64,000 nucleotides of DNA. Origin: Candidatus Woesebacteria bacterium RIFCSPLOWO2_01_FULL_39_61 (GTDB lineage Bacteria > Patescibacteriota > Microgenomatia > UBA8517). Every line of letters starts with the position of its first letter. Position 1 is the first letter of the stretch. Below are positions 13,183 to 26,767 of the stretch, in pieces. The translations under genes and the position numbers were made by a program. The stretch lies in the NCBI GenBank assembly GCA_001793155.1, contig MGHI01000005.1:23-64022 (forward strand). Direction: 5' to 3'. Below the pieces are notes generated by a model. That model did not search any database and was not told where the DNA came from. It saw only the letters and a program-made list of their open reading frames with translations.

Positions 13183-13293
13183 ATAAATTTTACTCCGGAA
13201 AAATTTTATTTGCGAAGACAAACTCGGCGGTGGTTTTACCAACAACGCGCAAGCGGTGTCAAGCTTTATACATCGTATTTGATAATCCGGGAT

Positions 13294-14151
13294 CTATTCT
13301 GGGAATATTTTCTTACTGAAAATAAAATCTGCTATGGTTCGGCTTATTAGATCAACCCCTGCAGCAGACGGGTGGATATAATCATCGGGATTTATGTACT
13401 TCAAGTCTGCTTCACCTTGGGGAGTCAGCGATTTTTCGTAAACGTTAATCAGAGGGATTTGTTTTTCTCTGGCATACTCGATTACTTTATTAATATAGAC
13501 GATTCTTTCTTCAGCCCATTCGGCTCTTTCTATGGGTGTCAGGTCGTATACACCTTTTGCAAAAAGGGTTTTTGAAGGTGCAATTGGCGTCATTATGGTA
13601 ACAACTGCCTCAGGTTTTTTTAGAATAATTTGTTTTATACTTTCATCCAGAGTGCTTATGTGTTTAGCCAATCCTTCCCCGTCAGAGTATTGAGGCAGAG
13701 GATTATAGGCAAAAGTCTCAATTATTATAAGGTCGAATCCCTGCGACAAAATGGATTGAAACTTTTGTTCTTTGTAAGTTGTTTCCTGCGATAATCTTTC
13801 GGGTAGAGTTTCAATGCTTGTTGCTCCGAAGCCGTAGTTATAATTAACAAATTCATGTTCGGGATAAAGTTCGATTAGGTGTTGGCGTAAAAGCTGAGCA
13901 TTCGGGCCGAGGGAAGCGATTATGGAATCTCCGACAAGCATTATTCTGTATGCGCGTGAGTAAGGAATTTTCGGTGGGTTATAGGGAAACGGATTAAAGG
14001 GCGTCGGCGTAGGGGAGGGAGCCGGAATAAAACCTTGTGCAGGATAAACGGTTTGTGGTTTTTGAGCACCGGATAAAAATATGATAAATATAAAAAAAAG
14101 AATTGAAATCGAGAGAAGTTCTATCAGAATATTTTTTTTCAAAACTTCCAT
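13294..14151 (-). CDS. SGNH/GDSL hydrolase with N-terminal TM anchor
   Basis: LVGDSII block I motif after a signal/TM segment. Confidence 0.5.
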   Translation of the reverse strand: MEVLKKNILIELLSISILFFIFIIFLSGAQKPQTVYPAQGFIPAPSPTPTPFNPFPYNPPKIPYSRAYRIMLVGDSIIASLGPNAQLLRQHLIELYPEHEFVNYNYGFGATSIETLPERLSQETTYKEQKFQSILSQGFDLIIIETFAYNPLPQYSDGEGLAKHISTLDESIKQIILKKPEAVVTIMTPIAPSKTLFAKGVYDLTPIERAEWAEERIVYINKVIEYAREKQIPLINVYEKSLTPQGEADLKYINPDDYIHPSAAGVDLISRTIADFIFSKKIFPE

Positions 14152-14245: not shown

Positions 14246-14821
14246 ATGTCCGTAAAAATTACATATTTTGTTCACGGAACAACAACTGACAACGAAAAAG
14301 ATATTTCTTCCGGCTGGTCGGATGTTGAACTTTCCGAGTTAGGTAAGAGGCAAGCGAAAGATTTAAAAGAAAAAATAAAAGATAAGCAAAAACTTGGCCA
14401 AGCTGGACTTGGTAAAAAATTTGATGTTGTGTTTTGTTCCGATTTAAAAAGAGCGGTTGATTCTGCAAACCTTGCTTTTGGCGGAACAGTTGCGATTATT
14501 AAAGATGAAAGATTGCGTGAGTGCAATTATGGGGATTATAACGGTAAACCCGAGAAGGTTGTCGAGCCATTGCAGGAAGAAAATATTGAAAAGAGATTTC
14601 CTAACGGCGAAAGCTACGAAGATGTAAAGGAAAGAATTCAGGATTTTCTGGGTTTTCTCAAAGAAAAATATGGCGGAAAATCCGTTGCAATTGTAGGTCA
14701 TAAAGCACCGCAATTGGCGCTAGACGTTTTATTAAAAGGCAAAACTTGGAAAGAAGCTTTTGCCCAGGATTGGAGGAAGAAAAAAGCCTGGCAACCAGGT
14801 TGGGATTATATTTTAGGATAA
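14246..14821 (+). CDS. Histidine phosphatase (phosphoglycerate mutase family)
   Basis: N-terminal (Y)FVHGTT plus later AIVGHKAP histidine motif. Confidence 0.55.
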   Translation: MSVKITYFVHGTTTDNEKDISSGWSDVELSELGKRQAKDLKEKIKDKQKLGQAGLGKKFDVVFCSDLKRAVDSANLAFGGTVAIIKDERLRECNYGDYNGKPEKVVEPLQEENIEKRFPNGESYEDVKERIQDFLGFLKEKYGGKSVAIVGHKAPQLALDVLLKGKTWKEAFAQDWRKKKAWQPGWDYILG

Positions 14822-14858
14822 TTTGTCCTAGGGATATTCGACACTCTTCAAAATAGCC
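14820..14858 (+). repeat. Family-A junction repeat (long form, degenerate)
   Basis: AATTTGTCCTAGGGATATTCGACACTCTTCAAAATAGCC. Begins at the stop of the upstream gene. Confidence 0.7.
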
Positions 14859-14864
14859 ACTCCT

Positions 14865-14892
14865 TACTCTATTGATTCGAATCAATAGAGTA
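14865..14892. repeat. Perfect 28-bp palindrome TACTCTATTGATTC|GAATCAATAGAGTA
   Basis: Reverse complement of the first 14 nt equals the last 14 nt. Central core is TTCGAA. Confidence 0.8.
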
Positions 14893-14897
14893 AAAAT

Positions 14898-14927
14898 AAA
14901 TTTGTGTTTATTTCCAAATTAGCTCCG
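14898..14927 (+). repeat. Family-A junction repeat (short-form variant)
   Basis: AAATTTGTGTTTATTTCCAAATTAGCTCCG. Confidence 0.5.
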
Positions 14928-14961
14928 CTAAATAATCAGTGATAGAATACTCTGAAATTAT

Positions 14962-15843
14962 ATGAGTAGAGTAGAAATTTCATCTTTGACAGAAGGTCCA
15001 ATAAAGTCTTGTGCGAGAGTAGATGTTGAAAGGATTGAAATTGGTGAAATGGGACCCAAATGGAGTAGGCGCTGGATGATTGTTGATTCCGATGGAAAAT
15101 TTATGCTTTCAGATAAACACCCAAAAATGGTTTTTGTAGAACCTCAAGTATCAGAAACAGATAATGTACTCGTTTTAAAGGGAAGAGGATATGGGCACCA
15201 AGTTGATATTCCCATTCGAGACGAAGGGCCACGGCGAATTGTCGAGATGTTTAATTCCGGTATGAGGTATGAGGCGGTTGATGATGGGGAAGAAGCAGCA
15301 AATTGGCTTGGCGAATACTTAAACATTGATGGAGCGCGGCTTGTGCACATGCCGGCAGACGTTATCCGCCACGATGGCCGAGGTCTTGCCAGATTTAATT
15401 TTGCCGATAGTTGGTCAATGTCTTTGGGGAATGTCGCATCTTTGGATGAATTAAACAGAAGGATAGTTGCAATCGGAAGAAGTCCTGTTTCCAAGGAGCG
15501 ATTTGGTCATGATATGTGGATAACTGGCGCTGGTTCTTTTGCTGAAGATTTGTGGGGAAAAATTAAGGTAAACGGGCAAGTGATTGTTGTTGTAAAGCCT
15601 ATTGAGCGCTGTTCCAGAACCTTAGTCAAAAGGGAAGTTGAAGTGGCGGATGAACTTCTCAAAAAAGATAAAGAACCCCTCGCAACATTGGCTACATTCA
15701 GAAAAGATTCTCAAAGTGTAAAAACAATATTTGGACAAAAACTGGCTCCCGAATGGACAGGTGAACCCCAAGAAATCCATGTAGGGGATAAAGTTGAAGT
15801 AGTAGTTTACAAAGCGCCTCCTGACTTAATAAGTTCAAAATAA
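14962..15843 (+). CDS. MOSC domain protein (MOSC_N beta-barrel + MOSC)
   Basis: N-terminal GPIKSC…RRWMIVDSDGKF MOSC_N signature. Noticeably GC-richer than its neighbours. Confidence 0.6.
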   Translation: MSRVEISSLTEGPIKSCARVDVERIEIGEMGPKWSRRWMIVDSDGKFMLSDKHPKMVFVEPQVSETDNVLVLKGRGYGHQVDIPIRDEGPRRIVEMFNSGMRYEAVDDGEEAANWLGEYLNIDGARLVHMPADVIRHDGRGLARFNFADSWSMSLGNVASLDELNRRIVAIGRSPVSKERFGHDMWITGAGSFAEDLWGKIKVNGQVIVVVKPIERCSRTLVKREVEVADELLKKDKEPLATLATFRKDSQSVKTIFGQKLAPEWTGEPQEIHVGDKVEVVVYKAPPDLISSK

Positions 15844-15879
15844 TTTGTCAGGGATGTTCGACGCTCTTCAAATAAGCTT
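15842..15879 (+). repeat. Family-A junction repeat (long form)
   Basis: AATTTGTCAGGGATGTTCGACGCTCTTCAAATAAGCTT. Overlaps the MOSC stop codon. Confidence 0.7.
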
Positions 15880-15906
15880 TGGTTTAATTCATGGTAAAAT
15901 TGGCCT

Positions 15907-16167
15907 GTGGATTTTATAGATAATAAACTTAGTAAAGATGAAATTATAAATCTGCGCAGAAAGTACGGTGACTACATAAAGCTTACTGTTGATGTAGAAA
16001 ATAAGTGGTTGGTTATAGGCGGAGAACTTCACGCAGACGGCGAAAAAATATTACTTGGAAGAGGAAGCAAACAAAATGATATTTGGGGTGGAGGAATAAA
16101 TATGATTGATAAACAGGTTGACACAACGGCAGTACTTAATGTCCGGCCGCGCTTGGGGGAACAATAA
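15907..16167 (+). CDS. Hypothetical protein
   Basis: GTG-start ORF in the cassette array. Confidence 0.3.
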   Translation: MDFIDNKLSKDEIINLRRKYGDYIKLTVDVENKWLVIGGELHADGEKILLGRGSKQNDIWGGGINMIDKQVDTTAVLNVRPRLGEQ

Positions 16168-16236
16168 CTTGGAGATACTGGATAAAAGGACCCGAGAAAA
16201 AACACACGCAATTATACGAAAATATTTTAGGCTATT

Positions 16237-16479
16237 ATGGCGCTAAACAAAAACGACAGGACGTTAGACGCAATTACCAATCTTTATCGGGCAGCATATT
16301 ATTTGTCCCTGGAGTCAAAAGAAACAGGGTTAAACTTTTTACAAAAGGCGAAAAAAATATTAGGAGACAAGATAAAATTGGACGTGAACAAGATAAGAAA
16401 ACAAGGCGAGGATAACTACTTATACTGGGCGGAAAAGATCTTAGACGAATACAAGAGACTAAAAACGAAGTTGTCCTAG
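16237..16479 (+). CDS. Hypothetical protein
   Basis: ORF. Its TAG stop lies inside the family-A repeat (TTGTCCTAGGGACG). Confidence 0.35.
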   Translation: MALNKNDRTLDAITNLYRAAYYLSLESKETGLNFLQKAKKILGDKIKLDVNKIRKQGEDNYLYWAEKILDEYKRLKTKLS

Positions 16480-16508
16480 GGACGTTTGACGTCCTTCAAA
16501 TTAGCTCC
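16471..16508 (+). repeat. Family-A junction repeat (long form, consensus copy)
   Basis: TTGTCCTAGGGACGTTTGACGTCCTTCAAATTAGCTCC. Contains the GGACGT/ACGTCC inverted repeat. Confidence 0.8.
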
Positions 16509-16534
16509 TGGTTAAGTATTGTAAAAGTAAGCCT

Positions 16535-17317
16535 TTACTCGACCAAAATCTGACCCTTCATGGTGTTTGCGTGGGGAGTGCAGTGGTAAGGGTAAATTCC
16601 TGGCTGACTAAAAGTAACCGAGTATGTGTCACCTTTTGAAAGATTGCGAGAATTTTGATCAGGATAGTATGAATGGGCTGGGTGGGAATCGGTATTTACG
16701 GTGTGGACTACATTATCTTGGTTGACCCAAGTTACTTTAGTTGCCTTTGAGACCCTGATCTTTGCAGGATTAAAGGCAAAATTCCTAAGATTTATTGTTA
16801 CTTCATCTTGTCCTGTCATGTCGACAAAGTTAGCGGCTTGGGTTCTATCGATCTTGAATTGAAACTGCCCGTCGTGACAGCTTCCGTCAGCCCAGCAGGC
16901 TTTATAGTCTACTGTATAAAAATCATCTGGAGCATCCGGAATGATTGCCCTGCGCATACTCAATTTGTTCGCATCGATAGTGGTTTTTCCGCTCGTTATA
17001 TCTATTGGCGACGTTGTTCCTGTTTTTGGATTTTTTACGCCGCTTGAATATACAATGATTTCAGACGGGGCAGCCAGATCAAAATTAAAATTGATGACAA
17101 CAAAAACTGGAGCCCCCGCAAGAATTGCTCCGTGTTCCGGAGTATTACTTTCATAATGAGCCGCTTTTTTGGGAATTGAAAAGTTATTAATATTTAAAGT
17201 TTCGTTTTGATCGTCATTTGAAGAAGTTATATTTTGGCGCGGCCCTTGACGAAGAAGAAAAAAAGCTCCTCCACCAAGAAGTAATATAACGATTATTACT
17301 AGTAATGCCTTGTTCAC
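16535..17317 (-). CDS. Secreted CopC-like + cupredoxin (plastocyanin/azurin-like) copper-binding protein
   Basis: N-terminal TM/signal. CopC-like beta-sandwich region. C-terminal type-1 copper ligand pattern (…YHCTPH…M). Confidence 0.5.
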   Translation of the reverse strand: MNKALLVIIVILLLGGGAFFLLRQGPRQNITSSNDDQNETLNINNFSIPKKAAHYESNTPEHGAILAGAPVFVVINFNFDLAAPSEIIVYSSGVKNPKTGTTSPIDITSGKTTIDANKLSMRRAIIPDAPDDFYTVDYKACWADGSCHDGQFQFKIDRTQAANFVDMTGQDEVTINLRNFAFNPAKIRVSKATKVTWVNQDNVVHTVNTDSHPAHSYYPDQNSRNLSKGDTYSVTFSQPGIYPYHCTPHANTMKGQILVE

Positions 17318-17370
17318 AGGAATTAATCTTAATAAAATTTTAGGAAATTGACAATAAGTTAAAAGATAAG

Positions 17371-17406
17371 TCTGTCCATGGAACGTTTGACGTCCTTCAA
17401 ATTACC
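17371..17406 (+). repeat. Family-A junction repeat (long form)
   Basis: TCTGTCCATGGAACGTTTGACGTCCTTCAAATTACC. Lies between two minus-strand genes, in the same orientation as all other copies. Confidence 0.75.
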
Positions 17407-17417
17407 TTCGGAAATTA

Positions 17418-17849
17418 TTACAAATACTTTATCATTAGCCAGAAGTTTTTCTTACTGAAGAATTTTTCTAAGAGTGTAACTTTTTTAAACCCTAATTTCT
17501 CATAGAACTTTACAGCTCTCCAATCTTCTCCAGTTTCCAAATACAAAAGATGTATATTGTTTTTTCTCGCGTATTTTACAGCTTTATCCATTAGCGCCTT
17601 TCCTATACCTGCGCCCCTTTCATTATGATCAACTATTAATTCAGCAATATAAAATACACCAGCCATGGTGTGGCCGGCCAACCCCCCAACAATTTTGCCG
17701 TTATCTTCTACTTTAATCCTGATCTTTTTAACGTCCCAATAATTCCAATCCAATTTTTTTCCATAGTGTTCCAGATGAACTAACTCCCATTCGTGTTTTT
17801 TAAACTCGCTTAATTTTTTATTACTTCTTTTTAGGAATGTTATCTTCAT
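17418..17849 (-). CDS. GNAT family N-acetyltransferase
   Basis: Acetyl-CoA binding motif-A-like NERGAGIGKALM. Confidence 0.6.
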   Translation of the reverse strand: MKITFLKRSNKKLSEFKKHEWELVHLEHYGKKLDWNYWDVKKIRIKVEDNGKIVGGLAGHTMAGVFYIAELIVDHNERGAGIGKALMDKAVKYARKNNIHLLYLETGEDWRAVKFYEKLGFKKVTLLEKFFSKKNFWLMIKYL

Positions 17850-17884
17850 AAGATTTGATAAAGGTAGTATAGTATTTTATTGCA

Positions 17885-17906
17885 CATTTGTCTTCAAATT
17901 AGGTTC
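17885..17906 (+). repeat. Family-A junction repeat (short form)
   Basis: CATTTGTCTTCAAATTAGGTTC. Confidence 0.6.
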
Positions 17907-17929
17907 TGGGAATTTGTTATAAATTCATT

Positions 17930-18318
17930 ATGTCGAAAATAGTAATTGTTGACGAAAATGACGAAGTAATTGGTTCGGAAGATAAAGAAATTGCTTTTCA
18001 AAAAGGATTAATACGAAGAATTGTTAGGACATTTGTCTTCAACAGTATGGGTGAGTTGTTTCTTCAGAGGAGAAGTTCCAATAAGGATACTTAGAGCAAG
18101 AGTTTAAGAGAATGATTCTTAAAGAATTTAGTACACTTTTTACAACTGTTTTTAATGGAGACATAATGCCGAACAAGAAAGAACTGAGTGGAGGAAAATG
18201 GTTTGATTTAAAGAGAGTAGAAAAGATGTTGAAAGAAAATCCAAAAGAATTTCCTCCCGGGTTTATAGAAGCTTTTAACAGGTATCTAATAATGAAAAAA
18301 CGTTTGTCTTCAAATTAG
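17930..18318 (+). pseudogene. Disrupted Nudix/IPP-isomerase-like gene. N-terminal fragment at 17930-18094. A possible C-terminal fragment is the 18112-18318 ORF
   Basis: The N-terminal fragment MSKIVIVDENDEVIGSEDKEIAFQKGLIRRIVRTFVFNSMGELFLQRRS resembles the Idi/Nudix N-terminus and ends at a premature TAG. A partial family-A repeat copy (ACATTTGTCTTCAAC) lies inside it. The downstream ORF in another frame has a plausibly Idi-like C-terminus. Confidence 0.4.
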
Positions 18319-18328
18319 CTACGGAGTA
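18301..18328 (+). repeat. Family-A junction repeat (short form)
   Basis: CGTTTGTCTTCAAATTAGCTACGGAGTA. Overlaps the stop of the 18112-18318 ORF. Confidence 0.7.
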
Positions 18329-18341
18329 TTAAAAGAGTAAT

Positions 18342-18608
18342 TTAAAGGTTAATTCCCAAGCCCTTGTAAATAAATTGTTTGATGAGTGTTTGATATGGCA
18401 TGTTCATTCTGTTGGCTTTGATTTTTACCTTTTCTATAATAGTTTCAGGAATCCTTATTGTCACAGAACGGGATGTAAGTTTTAAGTTTGGAAAAGACCA
18501 CTTCTCAAGGTTCGTGTAATCCACGTATTGGGTAGAATCGACATTCTGCCAAAACTCCCTTTCCTCTTTTTCTGACTTAAACTTTGGAATCTTTTTTAAC
18601 CTTTTCAT
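18342..18608 (-). CDS. brnA: BrnA antitoxin (CopG/RHH-like)
   Basis: About 88 aa. Overlaps the upstream BrnT-like gene by 32 nt. BrnA-like C-terminal RHH segment. Confidence 0.5.
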   Translation of the reverse strand: MKRLKKIPKFKSEKEEREFWQNVDSTQYVDYTNLEKWSFPNLKLTSRSVTIRIPETIIEKVKIKANRMNMPYQTLIKQFIYKGLGINL

Positions 18609-18888
18609 ATTTTTGAGCCTCTTTTTTGTGCATTTTTCTTGCTGAAACTATACGGATCTTTTCCTTTCTTATTACAAAAACTACAAATAATTGTTTACCT
18701 TCTTGGGTTTTACCTAGAGCGATAAACCTTTTTTCTTTGTGAGAATGTTTTACGTCGGGAAGAACATAAAGTTCCTCACTGACAAAAATCTCTTCTGCTT
18801 CTTTTGGTGTGGTGCCGTGTTTTTCGTAACTTTTATCTAGATTGCCTTTGTCCCATTCGAAAGATACGGTCTTCGGCAATACACGCAT
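18577..18888 (-). CDS. brnT: BrnT toxin (DUF497 ribonuclease)
   Basis: N-terminal FEWDKGNLDKSYEKHG is the characteristic BrnT opening. About 100 aa. Confidence 0.6.
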   Translation of the reverse strand: MRVLPKTVSFEWDKGNLDKSYEKHGTTPKEAEEIFVSEELYVLPDVKHSHKEKRFIALGKTQEGKQLFVVFVIRKEKIRIVSARKMHKKEAQKYEKVKKDSKV

Positions 18889-18916
18889 TTGTACATATTA
18901 TGTATGTACATGATAA

Positions 18917-18933
18917 TTTTGTCAAGGACAAAA
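18917..18933. repeat. Palindrome TTTTGTCAAGGACAAAA adjoining the family-A repeat
   Basis: Perfect 7-bp arms. Confidence 0.6.
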
Positions 18934-18971
18934 TTTGTCCTAGGGACGTTTGACGTCTTTCAAATTAACGC
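18931..18971 (+). repeat. Family-A junction repeat (long form)
   Basis: AAATTTGTCCTAGGGACGTTTGACGTCTTTCAAATTAACGC. Confidence 0.8.
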
Positions 18972-19000
18972 TAAGAGTAATTTGTTATAATGTAAAAATC

Positions 19001-19933
19001 ATGAAAGCGGTTCAGGTAAGTTCTTACGGCGGGCTGGAAGTTTTAGCAATTAATGAAGTTGTCAAACCCGAGCCTAAAGCAGGCCAGATTTTAGTAGAAG
19101 TTTATACAGCTAGTATCAATCCGCTTGATGTGGCTGTCATGTCAGGCTCTCTTAAAGACATGATGCCAATTGAATTGCCTTTTACACCTGGAGGAGATTT
19201 TGCCGGTGTTATTTCTGAGGTAGGGGAAGGAGTGGCCAATTTTGCGCTGGGGGATAAAGTATTCGGATCGGCAAATGTTGTGAATGGAGGAACCGGTTCA
19301 TTGGCGGAACTGGCCATAGCCAATGTGGTTAACACTGGGCGGATGCCCAAGATTAATTTCGAGACGGCTGCGGCTCTTCCTCTGGTAGGGAGCAGTGTGG
19401 TGCAGGCAATTGAAGAGCATATGCAACTTGCAGCAGGGCAGAAAATTTTAATTCACGGGGGAGCCGGGGGGATAGGGCACTTGGCAATTCAGCTTGCCAA
19501 ATCAATTGGTGCGTATGTTGCGACCACAGTTGGCACGGACAATGCTACATTTGCGAAGGAGTTAGGTGCTGATGAAGTGATTGACTACAAAAAACAGAAA
19601 TTTGAAGAAATGCTGCACGATTTTGATGCCGTGTATGACATGGTTGGCGGGGAAACGACGAATAAATCATTTTTAGTTTTGAAAAAGGGAGGAATCCTTG
19701 TTTCAATGTTAGGACAACCCAGTGAGGAATTAGCAAAAAGGAACGGCGTAACTGTAATCGGTCAAAATACGAAAACTCAGACAAAAAATTTGTCTCGGGT
19801 AGCAGGACTTGTGGACGGTGGAAAAATGAAAGTGAATATAGACAAAGTATTTCCTTTGACTGAAGTAAAAGAAGCATTTACTTATCAGAAAATAAATTCT
19901 CCCCGGGGGAAAGTAGTTATTAAAATCAAATAA
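19001..19933 (+). CDS. MDR-family NAD(P)H quinone oxidoreductase / alcohol dehydrogenase-like
   Basis: MKAVQVSSYGG…PEPKAGQILV… plus the GGAGGIG cofactor motif. The internal ATG at 19001 was chosen over the upstream extension that overlaps the repeat. GC-richer than its neighbours. Confidence 0.6.
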   Translation: MKAVQVSSYGGLEVLAINEVVKPEPKAGQILVEVYTASINPLDVAVMSGSLKDMMPIELPFTPGGDFAGVISEVGEGVANFALGDKVFGSANVVNGGTGSLAELAIANVVNTGRMPKINFETAAALPLVGSSVVQAIEEHMQLAAGQKILIHGGAGGIGHLAIQLAKSIGAYVATTVGTDNATFAKELGADEVIDYKKQKFEEMLHDFDAVYDMVGGETTNKSFLVLKKGGILVSMLGQPSEELAKRNGVTVIGQNTKTQTKNLSRVAGLVDGGKMKVNIDKVFPLTEVKEAFTYQKINSPRGKVVIKIK

Positions 19934-19951
19934 TTTGTCTTCAAGTTATCC
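19932..19951 (+). repeat. Family-A junction repeat (degenerate short form)
   Basis: AATTTGTCTTCAAGTTATCC, immediately after the TAA stop. Confidence 0.5.
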
Positions 19952-19959
19952 CCGTTTGA

Positions 19960-20349
19960 TTAGTTTGATTTTTCTAATAATTTTTTAATTTCTCCTAGGT
20001 AATAATCATCCCACCCTTTATCTATTGAGTCGAAATTTCTTGATGAAGCTCCGGAGTGTGTTAATTTTAGGGTAGTACAGCCCTCCTTATGGGTTAAAGT
20101 GAATGTAACTTTTGTGGCTGTTTCTGGATCGTCGTCCGAGTACCATTCCCGAACAAGCTTTTTTTCGGGAATAACTTCAAGGTTGGTCCCGTGGATTGAT
20201 CCGCCCCAAAGAGAAAACTTAAAATCTTTTTTATCGGTCATCTTTGCGGGCACTGCGCCCCACGCCTCAATTGTCTTAGGATTGGTGAGCGTATCCCATA
20301 CCTTAGTCTGTGGAGCGAAAATATGATATTCCTTTTTGATCACTTCCAC
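19960..20349 (-). CDS. SRPBCC-fold protein (AHSA1/polyketide-cyclase-like)
   Basis: About 130 aa. Weak pattern match to the Aha1-like domain family. Confidence 0.4.
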   Translation of the reverse strand: MEVIKKEYHIFAPQTKVWDTLTNPKTIEAWGAVPAKMTDKKDFKFSLWGGSIHGTNLEVIPEKKLVREWYSDDDPETATKVTFTLTHKEGCTTLKLTHSGASSRNFDSIDKGWDDYYLGEIKKLLEKSN

Positions 20350-20367
20350 TTATCGGATTATACAATA

Positions 20368-20403
20368 TATTTGTCTTCAAATTAGCTTCGGAGTAAAATT
20401 TAA
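20368..20403 (+). repeat. Family-A junction repeat (short form with GGAG SD)
   Basis: ATATTTGTCTTCAAATTAGCTTCGGAGTAAAATTTAA runs directly into the ATG at 20404. Confidence 0.8.
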
Positions 20404-20991
20404 ATGATGAAGGTCAAGGATCCTCGATACGATTACCATATCACAGTTTCCGCTCATTTATTGTTGAAAACAGTAGACAATCAAATACTTATGGCAAAAC
20501 GTCCAGAGACTTGGGAGTGGGCACCAGGAAGGTGGGGATTACCTGGAGGAAAGATTTATCAGTTTGAAACTTTCATGGATGCTATTAAAAGAAAAACAAG
20601 ACAAGAGCTTGGTTTTGAGTTGATGCCTGATGGTTTATATCAGATAAAGCAACTAATAATTAAGGACAAACAAGCCTTTATGTATTTTTTCTCAGCAAAG
20701 TATGAAGGACAGGAATTGACGGGAGAAATGACAGATTACAAATGGTTTGGTATAAAAGATTTAAATGAATTTCCGTCAAACAAATTCGCAGAATATTTTT
20801 ACAAAAAGATGCTTTCCGAGTTTTTAGTAAAAGACGCTAAGTTGCTACCAATGGAGGTGGTTGATAGTTTAAATTATATAAAGTTAAGTGACACCAAAAA
20901 TTATAAAGATTGGTTTGAGGGAATAATAAACAAGGATTACGATCCAAATAAGGTGGCAGACTTTAAAAAGTGGAAGAAAGTTAAAAAATAA
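20404..20991 (+). CDS. Nudix hydrolase
   Basis: Nudix box-like GGKIYQFETFMDAIKRKTRQELGFE. Confidence 0.5.
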   Translation: MMKVKDPRYDYHITVSAHLLLKTVDNQILMAKRPETWEWAPGRWGLPGGKIYQFETFMDAIKRKTRQELGFELMPDGLYQIKQLIIKDKQAFMYFFSAKYEGQELTGEMTDYKWFGIKDLNEFPSNKFAEYFYKKMLSEFLVKDAKLLPMEVVDSLNYIKLSDTKNYKDWFEGIINKDYDPNKVADFKKWKKVKK

Positions 20992-21025
20992 TTTGTCCTA
21001 GACTTAGCTTCGGAGTAAAATTTTG
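20990..21025 (+). repeat. Family-A junction repeat (short form with GGAG SD)
   Basis: AATTTGTCCTAGACTTAGCTTCGGAGTAAAATTTTG runs directly into the ATG at 21026. Confidence 0.8.
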
Positions 21026-21694
21026 ATGATGGCGAGCTATATTATTTTTTCTCCAACCTTCCTTATTGTTGCAAATTGGTTTCAACTTTTTACTTTTGTT
21101 TCTGCTTTTGGGAAAGGAAAAGTTGGAAGGAAAAAACTGGAAGATAAGTGGGTATATGAAACTGTCCTAAAGAAGACCGGTTTAAAACTTTCCGGTGTTA
21201 CACTTTTCCGCGATGAAAAGATGTACGGGATGATGGCAGGACTTCCTTTCTGGCCAAAGATGATATTGTCAGAGGGCTTGTATAAAGCTTTAAACAAAGA
21301 CGAATTGGAATGGGTGATTTTGCACGAAGCAGGGCATTGTGTTTTATGGCACAATTTAAAAGCATTTCTTATCGAGTTGTCTATTCTCATCTGCGGAATA
21401 CTTTTTATCTACTTTTATAAATTAAATTTTCTCGGAGGGTTTTTATTGGCGATAGTCTCAGGCCTTTTGTGTATTCAGGCAATTCGTTGGCTTATTGAAT
21501 ATCAGGCAGATAAATTTTCTATCGAAAGAGTTGATAATCCGGAAGGTGTAATAACAGCACAAGAAAAATTCAAAAACGCCACAGATAAGAATTTATTTAG
21601 CTCGGAAAAAAGTTTAGGAAGATTTTTACTTCACTGGAATATTTATCCAGGAAAGAGAATCGAGATGGCGAAATCGAGACTTTCTTCAAATTAG
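21026..21694 (+). CDS. Membrane HExxH zinc metallopeptidase (M48/M56-like)
   Basis: WVILHEAGH motif flanked by TM helices. Confidence 0.5.
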   Translation: MMASYIIFSPTFLIVANWFQLFTFVSAFGKGKVGRKKLEDKWVYETVLKKTGLKLSGVTLFRDEKMYGMMAGLPFWPKMILSEGLYKALNKDELEWVILHEAGHCVLWHNLKAFLIELSILICGILFIYFYKLNFLGGFLLAIVSGLLCIQAIRWLIEYQADKFSIERVDNPEGVITAQEKFKNATDKNLFSSEKSLGRFLLHWNIYPGKRIEMAKSRLSSN

Positions 21695-21699
21695 CTTTG
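21678..21699 (+). repeat. Family-A junction repeat (short form, partial)
   Basis: GACTTTCTTCAAATTAGCTTTG overlaps the peptidase stop. Confidence 0.6.
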
Positions 21700-21711
21700 T
21701 GTGTGGGGAAA

Positions 21712-21732
21712 GACCCATTTCCTCCGCGGTTC
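21712..21732 (+). repeat. Family-B junction repeat
   Basis: GACCCATTTCCTCCGCGGTTC. Confidence 0.6.
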
Positions 21733-21738
21733 AGAATT

Positions 21739-22017
21739 TTAAGTGAATTTGATTTCGAGCTTCTTATCGAGAGCTGAAGCGATTTTTTGGAGTAAACCAA
21801 TTGAAGGACTTACGGTCATATTTTCAATTCTAGAAAGAACAGCTTGAGTTGTCTTGGCTCTTTTGGCAAGTTCTCGCTGAGATATTTTTCCCTCAATACG
21901 AGCTTTAATAAGCTCTCTTGTAATCTCGAATTGGGGTTGTAATTTATCCCACTCCTTTTTGAACTTAGGATTTTTTAGTTGCTTTTTCAGATAGTCATCA
22001 AAAGTTTTATCTTTCAT
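21739..22017 (-). CDS. higA: HigA-type antitoxin (XRE-family HTH)
   Basis: HTH segment SQRELAKRAKTTQAVLSRIEN. Lies downstream of a Gp49-like toxin gene. Confidence 0.6.
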   Translation of the reverse strand: MKDKTFDDYLKKQLKNPKFKKEWDKLQPQFEITRELIKARIEGKISQRELAKRAKTTQAVLSRIENMTVSPSIGLLQKIASALDKKLEIKFT

Positions 22018-22050
22018 ATTAGATGATGATATCTTTTTAGATATCGCATG

Positions 22051-22395
22051 TCAAGTGCTTCTTGCCAAGATTTCTTGATACCTGCTTAAGGCGAGCTTTA
22101 TTTCTTTTATTGGAGTCTTTTGTTTTTTCTTAGCAAAAATATGTAAAACCTTTACTTCTTTGTATGGCAAAGATATGCAAAAGATACGAATATTATCTTT
22201 TCCTAGAATCCTAACTTCCCATAAAGGTGTATTTGTGATCTTTTTTAAATCTGGAACATCTCTGGCCAAACCGAATACTTTAATGTAATGTATCTTTGTT
22301 AATATTTTAGCTCTTACAGATTCTTCGATTGAGTTTAAGTATTCCTCTATAGGAGAAACATTTCCAGAAAAAGTGTAAAAACTCACTTTATACAT
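22051..22395 (-). CDS. higB: HigB-type toxin (Gp49-like / RelE-ParE superfamily)
   Basis: About 114 aa. Toxin-first order with an XRE antitoxin downstream. Gp49-like sequence. Confidence 0.55.
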   Translation of the reverse strand: MYKVSFYTFSGNVSPIEEYLNSIEESVRAKILTKIHYIKVFGLARDVPDLKKITNTPLWEVRILGKDNIRIFCISLPYKEVKVLHIFAKKKQKTPIKEIKLALSRYQEILARST

Positions 22396-22418
22396 GTAAA
22401 TTCAGAATAGCACAAGTA

Positions 22419-22438
22419 GAACCCATTTCCTCCCCACC
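22419..22438 (+). repeat. Family-B junction repeat
   Basis: GAACCCATTTCCTCCCCACC. Confidence 0.6.
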
Positions 22439-22495
22439 AGAGGCGGGCAAGCGCGGCTTCTGGATTTTCCGAAAGGTTGATATACTTCAAACAGA

Positions 22496-23059
22496 ATGAA
22501 TAAGAGTTTGGTAAATAAAGTTCAAAAATGGGTTGAAGAAATTTATTCTAATGCAGGCCATTTGGTAAGGACAGGATATTGGGTTAAAAGATTATATCCC
22601 GAGGCAGATGATGCTCTGATTATTGCAGCTATTTCTCATGATATTGAGAGAGCTTACAAGAAGGGCGGAAAGCCTCCATCACCTGAAGGGAAAGGTGCGA
22701 AATGGGATGATCCTGTGTATGACAAGTGGCACTCGGAGCGCTCCGCTGGCTTTGTTTCGGAATTTCTTCGTAAGGAAGGAGCAGCCGAGAGTATGATCAA
22801 AGAGATTTCAAAATTGATAAGCCACCACGAGCATGGAGGATGGAGAGAGGCCGATTTTCTAAGAGACGCCGATTCCTTAAGTTTTCTCGAAATCAATGTC
22901 GACATGTTTATTTCCCGAATTCCTGACCAACTCACAAAGGATGAAGTGAGAGAAAAGTTTGACTACATGTTTAATCGAATCGGAAGCGAGAAAGCAAAGA
23001 AAATTGCAAAACCTCTTTACAAAAAAGCAATCGAAAAATTAAATAAGATAAAAGATTAG
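22496..23059 (+). CDS. HD-domain phosphohydrolase-like protein
   Basis: H…HDIER motif. GC-richer than its surroundings. Confidence 0.45.
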   Translation: MNKSLVNKVQKWVEEIYSNAGHLVRTGYWVKRLYPEADDALIIAAISHDIERAYKKGGKPPSPEGKGAKWDDPVYDKWHSERSAGFVSEFLRKEGAAESMIKEISKLISHHEHGGWREADFLRDADSLSFLEINVDMFISRIPDQLTKDEVREKFDYMFNRIGSEKAKKIAKPLYKKAIEKLNKIKD

Positions 23060-23062
23060 AAG

Positions 23063-23083
23063 TACCCATCTCCTCCCGCTTCT
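23063..23083 (+). repeat. Family-B junction repeat
   Basis: GTACCCATCTCCTCCCGCTTC. Confidence 0.55.
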
Positions 23084-23089
23084 GTATAA

Positions 23090-23347
23090 TTGTTTATGTC
23101 TAAGTCCGTTGCTGTTGGAATTTTATTTGGGATCTTGTTGGGTATTGTATTACAATTCATTTACCCGAAATTATTAAGTTTGGAGGTTTTGTTCAACTCA
23201 TCATTAAGGCAACAAACGGGTGTACCCCAATACCCTCAGTATGGTTCCGGATCTATATTTGCAGTTGGGTTTTTGACGCCTCTGATTTTTGGAATAATTG
23301 GGGGATTAACCGGCCTGATAATATCTAAATTAACTCGCAAACCATAA
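23090..23347 (+). CDS. Small membrane protein
   Basis: Two hydrophobic helices. Confidence 0.3.
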   Translation: MFMSKSVAVGILFGILLGIVLQFIYPKLLSLEVLFNSSLRQQTGVPQYPQYGSGSIFAVGFLTPLIFGIIGGLTGLIISKLTRKP

Positions 23348-23493
23348 CACCTCTTCTTTACTCTGCAACTTCGAATAATATTCTAAAATTTATGTTGTAA
23401 AATCTAATTGGATAAAGGAAAGGAGTTAAAATTAATAATTATCCTTCACAATCAAGTCCTATAAATTCGGTTTCAAATATCCTTCTAAGACTA

Positions 23494-23790
23494 TTGAGAT
23501 TTTTTTCAGCACCGAAAATATTACTTTTTCTTTTTGCGGCAGCGTCTTCATTAGTTTCTTTGGGTTTGAGTCACGACATCGCTTTTTCGCTAGTCTTCGG
23601 GTGCTTTATGTTTTTGATGTTGTGGCAGATAAGTAAGAAGTGGGGAAGCGGACGGGAGACCAGACTCTTTGTCTATGGATTTGCGATCGTAATAATTTTA
23701 TTAAATTTATTGATTATTTTTCCGTGGATATCGAAATTTCTTCAGGAACTATTTTGGAAAATTTATTGCCTAACAAAGAACTTCTGTTAG
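23494..23790 (+). CDS. Small membrane protein
   Basis: TTG-start ORF with hydrophobic helices. Confidence 0.3.
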   Translation: MRFFSAPKILLFLFAAASSLVSLGLSHDIAFSLVFGCFMFLMLWQISKKWGSGRETRLFVYGFAIVIILLNLLIIFPWISKFLQELFWKIYCLTKNFC

Positions 23791-23826
23791 AAAATATTTT
23801 TTATTAATCCGCCCCTCCACGGTTTT

Positions 23827-23836
23827 TTGATATAAT
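23827..23836 (+). promoter_or_regulatory. Extended -10 promoter TTGATATAAT; leaderless or near-leaderless ridA
   Basis: TGaTATAAT lies 7 nt before the ATG at 23843. Confidence 0.45.
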
Positions 23837-23842
23837 TTGGTA

Positions 23843-24193
23843 ATGAGTATGCCAAAAGGTCCTTATTCTCCATATGTGCAAAGGGGAAATTTAATTTTTA
23901 CATCCGGCCAAATACACTTAACCCCCGACGGAACACTTCTTGAAGGAACTATTAAAGACCAGACACACCAAGTGATGAAAAATTTGGAAGGTGTTTTGAT
24001 AATTGCGGGAGTAAATTTTTCCGATGTAGTTAAAACAACAATTTACGTAACCGACATGTCTTTTTATAAAGATGTAAATGAAGTTTACGCGAGTTATTTA
24101 AGTGAACCGTATCCAGCCCGGGAAACTGTATGTGTAAGGGAATTACCTTTGGGGGCAAAGATAGAAATAAGTGTGATTGCAGTAAAAAGCTAA
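23843..24193 (+). CDS. ridA: RidA/YjgF family reactive-intermediate deaminase
   Basis: PKGPYSPYVQRGNLIFTSGQI… and C-terminal …PARETVCV…LPLGAKIEI are RidA signatures. The start is ambiguous (23843 or 23849). Confidence 0.7.
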   Translation: MSMPKGPYSPYVQRGNLIFTSGQIHLTPDGTLLEGTIKDQTHQVMKNLEGVLIIAGVNFSDVVKTTIYVTDMSFYKDVNEVYASYLSEPYPARETVCVRELPLGAKIEISVIAVKS

Positions 24194-24235
24194 AAACCTT
24201 ACCCCGTGACTTCAGTATTATGTTTAAAAGGAAAA

Positions 24236-24279
24236 CTCCGTGCAGGAAAAATTTGAGCAGGTTAGATACCTGCACGGAG
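24236..24279 (+). terminator. Hairpin CTCCGTGCAGG-N22-CCTGCACGGAG after ridA
   Basis: 11-bp perfect stem with a weak T-tract (TTTGG). Could be a terminator or a regulatory structure. Confidence 0.35.
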
Positions 24280-24408
24280 TTTGGTAATTAGAGACGATTA
24301 ATGCCTTGGTCGCGCGTCGTGGCGATTTTTGCGTCTGCATAAAAGCCAGATGCAATTCCACACGATCCACGCACACACCTTTGCCCAAAAACACCTTTTA
24401 ACTAAAAG

Positions 24409-24418
24409 TTGATATAAT
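24409..24418 (+). promoter_or_regulatory. Extended -10 promoter TTGATATAAT upstream of a Nudix gene
   Basis: Same GTTGATATAAT decamer as at 23827. Confidence 0.45.
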
Positions 24419-24472
24419 CGCTTTTAATAACATCCTCCACGAATTTGAGTTCGTGGTTTCCCCGGAGGGAGG

Positions 24473-24952
24473 ATGATATATCAGGTTCAATTCCTCCCTG
24501 AATTGAAAATTCAGGGGTTCCTTGAAACTGTTATGAAAAAAGAAAAAAAGAAAGTTGTCCGTGCAATTATTCTGGATGAGCAAGGTAGGGTTTTACTTGG
24601 AAAAAGAGCGCAAGGAAAAGGTGCTGGGACCTGGGCTTTGATTGGTGGTAAGCCGGATGGGAACGAAACTCCGGAGAAAACAATTATACGAGAAGTGAAG
24701 GAAGAACTCGGTATCGAATTTGACCCCCATTTCTATTTAGAAGAATTGGATAAGGAATCTTTTCCAAGAGAATTTTGGGACGTAAGATATTTTGAGGGTG
24801 GTTTTGAAGGTAAAATTTCACTTAACGAAGAAAACAGTGAAATTATGTTTGTGTCTTTGGAGGATTTAGATAATTTTGAAATTGCCTTTGATCATAAAGA
24901 GTTACTTATAAAATTTTTCAAAGGAAAATCCAAGTGTTTCAAAAAATTCTAG
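24473..24952 (+). CDS. Nudix hydrolase
   Basis: Nudix box GGKPDGNETPEKTIIREVKEELGIE. A GGAGGGAGG SD lies 4 nt before the ATG at 24473. An alternative start is the ATG at 24533. Confidence 0.6.
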   Translation: MIYQVQFLPELKIQGFLETVMKKEKKKVVRAIILDEQGRVLLGKRAQGKGAGTWALIGGKPDGNETPEKTIIREVKEELGIEFDPHFYLEELDKESFPREFWDVRYFEGGFEGKISLNEENSEIMFVSLEDLDNFEIAFDHKELLIKFFKGKSKCFKKF

Positions 24953-24961
24953 ACTAAAGAC

Positions 24962-25444
24962 ATGAAAGTTAAAACTATTTTAATGGCAATAGTTTATGCC
25001 GGCGGACTTTGGATTTTTTTACCATACCTTTTTATTTTATTAAATGATTTTTTTGGTCTACCCAGATTTACTTATCTTCCTCTCCGAGTACTGGGCGTAT
25101 TAATAATTATCTGTGTTTTACTAACTGACCTGTATCTATTTAACTTATTCAAATTTTTCGGGAAAGGAACCCCCGTTCCAGTCGAGCCAACCAACAAATT
25201 GATTCACAAGGGTCCGTACAAATATGTGCGAAACCCGATGTATGTAGGACACTCGCTGATATTTTTGGGAGAGTTTTTATTATTTGGTTACCCGACCATC
25301 CTTCTCTATATAGTTTCAGCAGGAATGGGTTTTCACCTTTTAGTTGTAAAGTGGGAGGAACCGCAATTAGTGAGGCGACTTGGTGAGCCTTATGAAAATT
25401 ATCTAAACAAAGTTCCTCGCTGGCTTCCGAAAATTTTAATCTAG
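24962..25444 (+). CDS. Isoprenylcysteine carboxyl methyltransferase (ICMT)/phospholipid methyltransferase family membrane protein
   Basis: VRNPMYVG…EEPQLVRRLGEPYENY are ICMT family signatures. Confidence 0.6.
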   Translation: MKVKTILMAIVYAGGLWIFLPYLFILLNDFFGLPRFTYLPLRVLGVLIIICVLLTDLYLFNLFKFFGKGTPVPVEPTNKLIHKGPYKYVRNPMYVGHSLIFLGEFLLFGYPTILLYIVSAGMGFHLLVVKWEEPQLVRRLGEPYENYLNKVPRWLPKILI

Positions 25445-25460
25445 GCAAGTATAACATTAA

Positions 25461-25970
25461 ATGAAAATTTCCGAATACAAAAAGGAAGTTAAAAAACCCT
25501 TAAGGCAGGCAACTTTATGTTTTTTGTTCCGAGAAAAAGAAATACTTTTAGCCAGAAAAAAGAGGGGGTTTGCCGAAGGGAAAATTAACGGAGTCGGAGG
25601 AAAGGTTAATGACGGTGAGGGCGTGAGAAAAGCTGCCAAAAGAGAGACTTTTGAGGAGATTGGAGTTAAGGTTGGTTCGTTAAAGCAAGTTGCTATTTTG
25701 GATTTTTATTTCATCCATAATTTCGACTGGAACCAGCAAGTTGTTGTTTTCGAGGCAAAAAAATGGCGTGGAGAGCCAAAGGAGAGTGAGGAAATGGCTC
25801 CTTTTTGGTGTCCTTTTGAAAAAATCCCTTATAAGGAAATGTGGGCTGATGACATTTTATGGCTTCCCCAGGTGTTGAAAGGAAAAAAAATTAAGGCTTC
25901 ATTTTTATTTAACGAAAAAGAAGAAATTTTGGATTATTTGGTAGAAGAAATCGATAAAGATTTAGATTAG
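25461..25970 (+). CDS. Nudix hydrolase (MutT-like)
   Basis: GVGGKVNDGEGVRKAAKRETFEEIGV Nudix box. Confidence 0.6.
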   Translation: MKISEYKKEVKKPLRQATLCFLFREKEILLARKKRGFAEGKINGVGGKVNDGEGVRKAAKRETFEEIGVKVGSLKQVAILDFYFIHNFDWNQQVVVFEAKKWRGEPKESEEMAPFWCPFEKIPYKEMWADDILWLPQVLKGKKIKASFLFNEKEEILDYLVEEIDKDLD

Positions 25971-25987
25971 TAGTAGAATACCAATTA

Positions 25988-26731: not shown

Positions 26732-26767
26732 TAAGATTTTCACATTCGCACATATTTTTAAAAAATT

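Follow-up and report, generated by a model that had tools for sequence, protein, structure and literature searches.

Short oriented repeats bound an array of accessory-gene cassettes in Candidatus Woesebacteria: a possible integron-like system

We describe an array of gene cassettes in a 64-kb stretch of DNA (hereafter the window; contig MGHI01000005.1) from a member of Candidatus Woesebacteria, within the Candidate Phyla Radiation (CPR), found in groundwater of the Rifle aquifer. Small, unrelated accessory genes follow one another in this array, one or two per interval, and the intervals are bounded by a short repeat that keeps one orientation whatever the strand of the genes. Two repeat families take part: family A occupies 12 gene junctions between 14.8 and 21.7 kb, every copy being on the + strand, and family B continues the array from the last A copy to about 23.1 kb. 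Both lie in a variable island of about 13.2-27.8 kb, the right end of which is a conserved GT2 gene at 27.84 kb. The same repeats, with the same regularity of orientation and spacing, are confined to comparable arrays in other species, where the genes that they bound differ in content and order, and we found no recombinase gene in cis at the window or at the other arrays. On balance we lean towards the view that the A and B sites are the oriented recombination sites of an integron-like cassette system, the enzyme of which would act in trans; strand exchange at the sites themselves and the class of the enzyme are the points that we infer.

Two families of junction repeats

The short form of family A is ATTTGTCTTCAAATTAGCT. 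The long form, AATTTGTC[CTAGGGACGTTTGACGTCC]TTCAAATTAGCT, is the short form plus a 19-nt hairpin core, which is how an earlier sequence-only reading of this DNA had described it. Short sites measure 18-20 nt and long ones 37-40 nt, and the consensus of 55 near-exact copies is (T)AATTTGTCTTCAAATTAGCTYCGGAGTA.AATT. The window contains five long copies (three well preserved and two degenerate), six short ones and one hybrid (Table 1), so that long and short forms coexist and many copies are decayed. The sequence-only reading had listed the motif at 13 positions, and it can indeed be read on the + strand at all of them, 12 being junction sites; the remaining one, a partial copy near 18039, had to be dropped as a member of the array, since the 13-nt partial match at 18030-18042 is Nudix coding sequence and is present in the intact homologue too. 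Searching with the bare 12-mer and two mismatches gave 17 matches where 16 are expected window-wide, the good ones all falling in 14.8-21.7 kb. A profile hidden Markov model built only from copies of other genomes returned ten matches at E<0.1 in the 64 kb, all on the + strand between 14913 and 21698, and neither this profile nor the motif scan found family A in the rest of the window outside the array. An inverted A-like remnant at 13186-13232 may, with some uncertainty, mark the approximate left edge of the repeat-bearing array.

Folded as single-stranded DNA, the long form makes an outer stem of 7 bp and an inner one of 8 bp, separated by a bulge of 4 nt on the 5′ side and closed by a loop of 3 nt (-7.8 kcal/mol, z = -4.8), in agreement with the hairpin proposed for it. 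The short form, which is the commonest, makes a single 7-bp stem (-3.7 kcal/mol) with the arms TAATTTG and CAAATTA around TCTT. It can alternatively be parsed as TAATTT-GTCTTC-AAATTA, in which case the right arm AAATTAGCTYC is the better conserved part and the left outer arm is variable. Within one genome the repeats are homogenised: four of the six A hits of GWA1_37_8 share the same uncompensated arm variant CAAAGTA. A terminator scan called none of the A copies and there is no T tract 3′ of the hairpin, so the possibility of an intrinsic terminator was rejected; Rfam searches of the array, at gathering as well as E-value thresholds, yielded nothing relevant.

The overlap of the repeats with the stop codon of the upstream gene was confirmed, as was the succession of GGAG and ATG at 20384-20406 and 21006-21028. 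At the same two sites (20368-20403 and 20990-21022) the repeat and its right extension can be read as a sigma-70-like TTGTCT-N17-TAAAAT, which ends 4-5 nt before the start codon; at the first of them a promoter scan picks it up. Such a promoter would produce a leaderless or near-leaderless mRNA, and the same bases may equally be read as a GGAG ribosome-binding site.

The junction repeat of family B is AGAACCCATTTCCTCCGCGG, with the fuller form (T)AAGAACCCATTTCCTCCGCGG(CTTCTG). In many copies, as in family A, the repeat begins on the stop codon of the preceding gene, and a TGATATAAT or TGTATAAT element with an ATG frequently comes after it. Both families display the same dimorphism, the long form being the short one plus a GC-rich hairpin insert of exactly 19 nt (CTAGGGACGTTTGACGTCC in A, CCRCCAGAGGCGGGCARGC in B); examples are 16468-16506 and 22416-22470 in the window, and others occur in L129, L130, L131, L146 and L150 (L-numbers are our labels for compared contigs or loci from other genomes and metagenomes).

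The functions that the sequence-only reading assigned to the cassette genes all stood up to comparison with Pfam (Table 1). Two of the cassettes are toxin-antitoxin modules, BrnA/BrnT and an HTH/Gp49 HigB-like pair. Cassette GC content ranges from 0.31 to 0.44, and the heterogeneous composition noted earlier is therefore real but modest relative to the window mean of 0.38. The cassettes had also been taken for promoterless, which does not hold throughout: many carry a TGnTATAAT-type extended -10 element directly before the start codon, and the zinc-dependent oxidoreductase cassette has a TTGTTATAAT element of its own 5′ of the ATG. The length of about 9 kb first given to the array was an underestimate, because family B adds copies and the variable island extends to about 27.84 kb; that an array is present was borne out. 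The A copy at 17369 deserves attention, as it lies between two minus-strand genes and hence can neither end nor start a co-oriented gene. The gene-less interval 14859-14897, between two A copies, may be an empty or collapsed cassette. Beyond the B copy at 23059, in 23090-27835, the island holds two small membrane open reading frames (ORFs), RidA, three Nudix genes, a PEMT/ICMT methyltransferase, a short-chain dehydrogenase/reductase (SDR) and further small ORFs. A 280-bp non-coding stretch at 24194-24472, between RidA and a Nudix gene, contains several hairpins (e.g. CTCCGTGCAGG...CCTGCACGGAG) and two terminator-like calls, and no Rfam family matches it.

Table 1. Repeats, cassettes and neighbouring features of the island (positions are those of the window)
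Feature	Position	Strand	Basis or remark
A-like copy, degenerate, inverted	13186..13232	-	directly 3′ of the epimerase stop; nhmmer E = 5 and 18 (weak, uncertain)
GDSL-lipase gene	13294..14151	-	Pfam Lipase_GDSL_2
His phosphatase cassette	14246..14821	+	Pfam His_Phos_1, E = 1.5e-29; stop TAA is the start of the A repeat
A long, degenerate, no longer folds	14820..14858	+	sequence reading, folding
Gene-less mini-interval between two A copies	14859..14897	+	perfect palindrome CTCTATTGATTCGAATCAATAGAG, 10-bp stem
A short, degenerate	14898..14924	+	nhmmer E = 0.013
MOSC-domain protein cassette	14962..15843	+	Pfam MOSC_N, MOSC
A long with 17-nt core, degenerate, no longer folds	15842..15878	+	nhmmer E = 0.048
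DUF5674 protein and 80-aa ORF cassette	15907..16479	+	Pfam DUF5674
A long, reference copy	16468..16506	+	stop of upstream ORF is TAG within the repeat; fold -7.8 kcal/mol, z = -4.8
CopC and cupredoxin copper protein cassette	16535..17317	- (anti-oriented to repeats)	Pfam Copper-bind, Cupredoxin_1, CopC
A long, well preserved	17369..17407	+	between two minus-strand genes
GNAT acetyltransferase cassette	17418..17849	- (anti-oriented)	Pfam Acetyltransf_1, E = 4.5e-17
A short	17885..17904	+	nhmmer E = 3.7e-05
Nudix pseudogene cassette, 135-bp internal deletion	17930..18318	+	blastn against L005, L129
A short	18301..18320	+	nhmmer E = 8.5e-08; 100% identity with L129 stops at its 3′ end
BrnA/BrnT toxin-antitoxin cassette	18342..18888	- (anti-oriented)	Pfam CopG_antitoxin, BrnT_toxin
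A long, well preserved	18932..18970	+	L142 identity boundary inside or at end of copy
MDR-type zinc-dependent oxidoreductase cassette	19001..19933	+	Pfam ADH_N, ADH_zinc_N
A short, 3′ end degenerate	19932..19951	+	nhmmer E = 3.6e-04
SRPBCC/AHSA1 protein cassette	19960..20349	- (anti-oriented)	Pfam AHSA1
A short (20368-20387) with conserved right extension AGCTTCGGAGTAAAATTT into ATG	20368..20403	+	nhmmer E = 1.8e-09
Nudix hydrolase cassette	20404..20991	+	Pfam NUDIX
A hybrid (20990-21009), different internal deletion, same right extension AGCTTCGGAGTAAAATTT	20990..21022	+	sequence reading, nhmmer
M48-like peptidase cassette	21023..21694	+	Pfam Peptidase_M48; ORF stop is TAG inside the next A repeat
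A short, degenerate, last A copy	21678..21696	+	nhmmer E = 0.0037; family B 12 nt further on (A-B composite junction)
B short AAAGACCCATTTCCTCCGCGG	21709..21729	+	nhmmer E = 6e-04, profile built from other genomes
HTH antitoxin and Gp49/HigB-like toxin cassette	21739..22395	- (anti-oriented)	Pfam HTH_3, Gp49
B long (short form plus 19-nt GC-rich insert), ending ...GGGCAAGCGCGGCTTCTGGATTTT	22416..22470	+	nhmmer E = 2.5e-04
HD-domain/DUF4202 protein cassette	22496..23059	+	Pfam DUF4202, HD
B, one mismatch, followed by TGTATAAT and ATG	23059..23085	+	sequence reading
Distal variable island, junction repeats decayed or absent	23090..27835	.	Pfam; ends at conserved GT2
B-like remnant, decayed	23803..23835		sequence comparison

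Distribution of the arrays and turnover of their genes

A scan of one genome per species (185,579 species, 596 Gb) with the exact 18-mer TTTGTCTTCAAATTAGCT retrieved 35 stretches. Clustered multiple copies were present only in eight Candidatus Woesebacteria, two genomes labelled 'Patescibacteria group' and three metagenome-assembled genomes (MAGs) of the SRP050083 co-assembly; the remaining matches were single, scattered over unrelated taxa and about as numerous as chance predicts for an 18-mer in 596 Gb. The motif is thus not a generic element of ordinary gene junctions throughout the genome, one of the outcomes that would have spoken against a cassette array: no exact copy in a whole MAG lies outside an array, all seven of MGGJ01 sharing one contig and the seven of LBWB01 being distributed as 3 + 3 + 1 on three contigs. 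Arrays are likewise found on three contigs of GWB1_39_12. Scanning metagenomes with a repeat variant that does not occur in the window brought further arrays, including some from Hainich groundwater. Viral contigs contained no exact match to the 18-mer, and the 92 single hits of a degenerate gapped pattern on them had random gap lengths, i.e. were noise.

The three SRP050083 MAGs are titled 'uncultured Gammaproteobacteria bacterium', and the arrays that they carry (L105, L114, L122, L129, L130, L137) are of Woesebacteria type. L129 possesses cassettes of the window island together with the flank formed by GT2 and the tRNA synthetase, and L114 has cassette homologues; the gammaproteobacterial labels look wrong.

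We compiled 28 loci, with 114 A and 50 B sites, 164 in all. No fewer than 162 of these have the majority orientation of their locus and two do not. The spacing of the sites has a median of 708 bp (interquartile range 541-972). Genes are less strictly arranged than sites, 154 ORFs inside the arrays being co-oriented with the sites and 52 anti-oriented (75%/25%). An A site follows an anti-oriented gene in 25 of 104 cases and precedes one in 29 of 104, and ten of 150 sites, that at 17369 of the window among them, have anti-oriented genes on both sides, about nine being expected if 25% of genes are anti-oriented. As sites are placed between anti-oriented genes at the random rate, they mark boundaries whatever the orientation of the genes. 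In nearly every locus A sites precede B sites in the direction of the repeats, and where one family gives way to the other the two motifs often form a composite, 12-60 nt apart; intervals without a gene, both A-A and A-B, also exist. In several genomes some A sites are followed by a leader module, CCGGAGTCCTTCGAT...ACTCAGGATCGTGATAAAAT (L103, 2060-2175; L147, 2840-2910), which suggests that a small set of promoter or leader modules may be shared at cassette 5′ ends.

The island occupies the same chromosomal site in several Woesebacteria species, and the genes between its flanks differ almost completely; identical gene content and order in sister genomes, the other outcome adverse to a cassette array, was not what we observed. 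The upstream flank comprises PEGA/SH3, UbiA, a family 4 glycosyltransferase, a membrane protein of about 500 aa and a PMT-like protein, and the downstream flank comprises GT2 and an aminoacyl-tRNA synthetase, conserved in L129, L136 and L158. The epimerase/GDSL or PMT-like flank on one side and the GT2/tRNA-synthetase flank on the other are common to L109/L136, L129, L157, L158-160 and L161. Homologues of window genes are found in arrays elsewhere: His_Phos in those of L114, L127 and L132; the DUF5674 gene and its 80-aa companion, still as a pair, in L109, L114, L118 (57-73% aa identity) and L158; the Nudix gene 20404-20991 as a cassette of L131 (71% aa identity); RidA in L132 and SDR in L106. 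The GDSL-lipase of the window (13294-14151) is 68% identical at the amino-acid level to an ORF that two A sites of L103 enclose, and a homologue also precedes the first A site of L157. The disrupted Nudix gene 17930-18318 has intact copies at other positions of other arrays, the copy of L150 being 91% identical over 208 bp. The arrays as a whole contain several toxin-antitoxin pairs and many Nudix, GNAT, methyltransferase, hydrolase, ABC-F, MFS, APH and Erm-like RrnaAD genes.

Exchange is also supported by a difference in DNA identity, which is 85-100% for shared cassettes and 66-82% for the flanks. Between the window and L129, nucleotide identity is 95% for SRPBCC, 94-100% for Nudix and 85% for BrnTA, against 71% for the GT2 flank. 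L130 and L131 share two cassettes at 87-92%, with a flank at 82%, and the shared blocks are separated by two cassettes in one and by five in the other; L129 and L150 share five cassettes at 82-92%, the order of Nudix1 and DUF433/PIN being swapped. Several identity blocks stop at the sites. The 100% match of the window to L129 ends at 18320, the last base of TTCAAATTAGCT, a 95% block ends at 20389, and the match to L142 begins within the long A copy 18932-18970. As to the side of the crossover, the right arm of the site with the rare AAC variant goes with the downstream cassette in the window/L142 comparison, and in the window/L150 comparison a shared AGCTACGGAGTA after the Nudix cassette points to the upstream one.

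His-phosphatase (14246-14821) has 6847 homologues at E<=1e-40, many of them about 70-75% identical in distant CPR lineages (Woesebacteria, Shapirobacteria, Buchananbacteria, Peregrinibacteria, Parcubacteria); the window copy has 191 aa and most others have 181 aa. This pattern reflects either unusually high conservation or frequent transfer. Being widespread in CPR, the gene was rejected as a marker specific to the arrays; its homologues still led to the islands L158-L161. The window has a second variable spot at 6181-9325, with a PhdYeFM/ParE pair, a 177-aa ORF, an ABC ATPase and a 269-aa ORF, and the genes that flank it (those of the membrane protein of about 500 aa and the PMT-like protein) are adjacent or overlapping in GWA1_37_8 (L158). 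A further PhdYeFM/ParE toxin-antitoxin pair, followed by a Nudix gene, lies at 38945-39451, outside the array in the downstream core.

Recombination sites or something else

The repeat-rich island would be, in the explanation that we favour, the core of a chromosomal gene-cassette array running from the PMT-like gene to the GT2/aminoacyl-tRNA-synthetase pair. Its unit would consist of one or two small accessory genes, their own leader (a TGnTATAAT-type promoter or a GGAG ribosome-binding site) and a terminal A or B site. Two direct sites would recombine so that a cassette leaves with one of them, and by the same reaction run backwards it could enter at any other site. Such excision and insertion would account for the single orientation at every boundary regardless of the genes, and for the presence of the same cassettes with other neighbours or in another order in other species. 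The sites could have side functions as well, offering stop codons in several frames and, for some copies, a Shine-Dalgarno sequence or a -35/-10-like element to the next gene. Since no gene for the enzyme lies beside the array, the enzyme must then act in trans. Our guess is a tyrosine-type recombinase: the short A site reads as inverted arms of 6-7 bp around an asymmetric centre of 4-6 bp, a layout that can be read as the double-stranded core site of such an enzyme.

Our search for the recombinase covered several sets of genes. Pfam detected no Phage_integrase, resolvase or transposase domain in any gene of the window (0-64 kb), in agreement with the sequence-only reading, and none in 20 large flanking ORFs; there is no recombinase among the 25 most frequent Pfam families of 148 ORFs from other arrays, a ranking in which families of a single ORF do not appear. 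With tblastn, hand-typed query sequences of XerD, IntI1, gamma-delta resolvase and IS608 TnpA gave nothing (for IntI1 and XerD, nothing at E<1) in about 0.78 Mb of partly redundant array-bearing loci. No IntI-like gene was found by Pfam at either end of the island in the window and L158-L161, and no RAYT (REP-associated tyrosine transposase) or other Y1 transposase by Pfam or tblastn in the array loci examined. A conserved 536-aa protein of the flank, considered as a possible recombinase, is instead a polytopic membrane glycosyltransferase-like protein.

The sole nuclease-like gene near the island lies three genes past its end, on the - strand (30821-31771). It encodes a free-standing, homing-endonuclease-like protein of 316 aa with N-terminal HTH_28/HTH_23/HTH_50 and a single LAGLIDADG_3 domain. 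The short A site, an 18-bp pseudo-palindrome with a 4-bp centre, has the general shape of a LAGLIDADG target.

Several observations weigh against recombination at the sites, the lack of a recombinase in cis being the first. We saw neither an excision product nor an empty site. The 19-nt insert of long A would wreck a double-stranded core site; as a single strand the long form folds well. Hairpin covariation is limited to two pairs with double changes and is not significant; together with the uncompensated variant CAAAGTA, this indicates that sequence, not structure, is conserved. Family B lacks both a palindrome and a robust fold. The crossover point differs between the comparisons with L142 and L150. 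Arrays seem settled on a short time scale: of 24 contigs with the MOSC gene, 23 share the arrangement of the window, and the array of GWA1_37_8 is 99.6-99.9% identical between samples. L161, from a related lineage, has the same island with similar gene families and without A or B repeats, so that neither the existence nor the variability of the island strictly needs them. Lastly, L003, L005 and L142, considered at first as strain variants with breakpoints at repeats, were set aside as proof of recombination, because each joins the window genome to another species across a shared identical stretch. L003 is the window up to 18320 joined to L129 sequence across 228 identical bp, and L142, for which the oxidoreductase cassette is the shared stretch, has seven differences from the window within the first 400 bp of that cassette, after which 11 kb are identical. 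These contigs may be assembly chimeras of co-occurring species, and for this reason we relied only on near-identical cassettes in genomes the core genes of which are 66-71% identical.

The most serious rival is that A and B are conserved intergenic expression modules, made of a stop codon, a small hairpin, a Shine-Dalgarno sequence or -35/-10 elements and possibly the operator of a regulator. They would be kept for expression, and genes would turn over by natural transformation and RecA-type recombination with no dedicated recombinase. We think this unlikely, while granting it real weight. Roughly every second copy of the repeat provides the upstream stop codon, some downstream genes receive GGAG and ATG from it, A-short with its extension reads TTGTCT-N17-TA(A/G)AAT, B is regularly followed by TGATATAAT and ATG, and 75% of array genes point the same way as the sites. 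Yet sites placed at the random rate between two anti-oriented genes serve neither neighbour, a quarter or so of the A sites come after (25/104) or before (29/104) an anti-oriented gene, and the orientation of sites is 162 to 2 irrespective of genes; sites that disregard the flanking genes in this way make a purely expression role hard to sustain. A promoter spacer, moreover, would be free to vary, whereas the 18-mer is near-invariant across species with 66-82% core identity, and the long form would put 36 nt between the -35-like and -10-like parts. Exchange without a dedicated enzyme would agree with the failure to find a recombinase, with the stability of arrays within populations and with the repeat-free island of L161, and crossovers on different sides in the two junction comparisons are what homologous exchange predicts; sites of 18-40 bp, on the other hand, are short for efficient RecA exchange.

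Another possibility, which we consider improbable, is that the repeats are selfish short palindromes akin to repetitive extragenic palindromes (REPs) and bacterial interspersed mosaic elements (BIMEs), to miniature inverted-repeat transposable elements (MITEs) or to Neisseria intergenic mosaic elements (NIMEs), spread by a RAYT/IS200-605- or IS110-type enzyme and having no part in moving genes. Short, imperfectly palindromic and extragenic, with long and short forms, many decayed copies, homogenisation within the genome and gene-less A-A and A-B intervals, they do look the part. They are nevertheless not dispersed, there being none outside the array in the 64 kb and exact copies in MAGs being array-confined; they have a single orientation with no inverted pairs; exactly one site stands at each cassette boundary, overlapping stop codons; the blocks of cassette identity are bounded by them; and no Y1 transposase was seen in any locus examined.

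That the array is a true integron remnant, a cluster of attC sites lacking an integrase (CALIN) with highly reduced attC sites and a conventional IntI elsewhere in the genome, seems very improbable to us. Here the sequence-only reading, which leaned on integrons, was right about the cassette-like architecture, the fixed orientation of the boundaries and the toxin-antitoxin cassettes; the class was not confirmed. Architecture and cassette size do fit integron arrays, and the two stems and asymmetric bulge of long A loosely recall the R box, L box and extrahelical bases of attC. However, neither strand of the window has a single complementary RYYYAAC/GTTRRRY pair at 42-140 nt spacing, the lack of such cores having already been remarked for the repeat itself, and attC sites are 57-141 nt long against 18-40 nt here. 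The attC layout of R box, L box, extrahelical bases and variable terminal structure is not that of the A sites: the dominant short form is one weak stem (-3.7 kcal/mol), B does not fold, and sequence rather than structure is conserved. In several species neither end of the island yielded an IntI, and we found no literature report of CPR integrons with such sites. The array is therefore not to be filed as an integron or a CALIN, since it has no intI beside it and its sites differ from attC in cores, size and fold, the features taken as proxies, with no Rfam match either.

An artefact of assembly or binning is hardly credible: the species switches of L003, L005 and L142 at shared stretches and the several contigs that end at repeats would suit it, but the same 21-kb arrangement came out of three pipelines and many samples at 99.9-100% identity, arrays occur in more than ten MAGs from different studies and sites, including Rifle and Hainich, and cassettes 82-92% identical in a different order cannot be chimeras.

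Going one step beyond recombination at the sites, we put forward, more tentatively, that Woesebacteria and perhaps other Microgenomates possess an independent site-specific cassette system, analogous to integrons and evolutionarily separate from them. It would be made of very short sites defined by their sequence, in two families (A and B) or more, and of a recombinase or nuclease acting in trans, and would serve the exchange of accessory genes among co-occurring CPR species; the 19-nt hairpin insert might then switch a site on or off. Full-text literature searches on integrons or cassette arrays of CPR, Patescibacteria, Microgenomates or Woesebacteria yielded no description of such a system, in agreement with the earlier impression that arrays of this kind had not been described in CPR. 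CPR/Patescibacteria have tiny genomes, in which few mobile elements have been described. If the proposal is true, it gives them a concrete route of horizontal transfer, single-gene cassettes being swapped between species on a conserved platform, and it means that an ordered array of oriented sites of the integron type arose with sites that are unrelated to attC and, presumably, with an enzyme unrelated to IntI. Arrays of this kind are probably invisible to tools like IntegronFinder.

Comparison with known systems

Tandem accretion at one chromosomal site is known from the staphylococcal cassette chromosome (SCC) elements at rlmH, which also have direct repeats that include the end of a gene, and some of which, without a recombinase of their own, can be mobilised in trans. 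Their units measure tens of kb, their sites derive from the 3′ end of rlmH, and at least one unit usually carries Ccr serine recombinases. REPs and BIMEs with their RAYT, and the NIME/dRS3 repeats of Neisseria, are like the A and B repeats short, extragenic, imperfectly palindromic and present in many copies, sometimes as tandem mosaics. REPs differ in being genome-wide, in both orientations and unrelated to cassette boundaries, NIMEs hold no genes, and no RAYT was seen in the array loci examined.

In Xer-dependent systems such as the pdif modules of Acinetobacter plasmids and the integrative mobile elements exploiting Xer (IMEX) at dif, gene modules, including toxin-antitoxin pairs, are bounded by short sites that housekeeping tyrosine recombinases encoded elsewhere recognise, and tandem IMEX have directly repeated sites. 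If A-short is parsed as TAATTT-GTCTTC-AAATTA, it would resemble the 11-6-11 plan of the 28-bp dif; B and long A do not fit it. pdif sites alternate in orientation whereas the Woesebacteria sites are all direct. Where a genome has a single dif, the sites here run to dozens and one genome may hold several arrays, and the window shows no switch of GC skew such as would go with an IMEX array at the replication terminus.

Sedentary chromosomal integrons and CALINs differ from the array in several respects. At 18-40 nt, the Woesebacteria sites have neither R''/R' cores nor an L box, the commonest being a 7-bp hairpin or a plain double-stranded inverted repeat; the array mixes two unrelated families, A then B, and many of its cassettes have promoters of their own. 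No IntI was found, and the host belongs to CPR, for which we found no literature report of integrons. In organisation the two are alike. In both cases small, unrelated and mostly co-oriented accessory genes, toxin-antitoxin cassettes among them, form a tandem array, with one oriented, imperfectly palindromic site at the 3′ end of each cassette, often on the stop codon. The sites are homogeneous within a genome, the array is stable in populations and different between species, and, as in CALINs, there is no integrase beside it. Judged by analogy of function, it is the sedentary chromosomal integron or CALIN that the Woesebacteria array resembles most.

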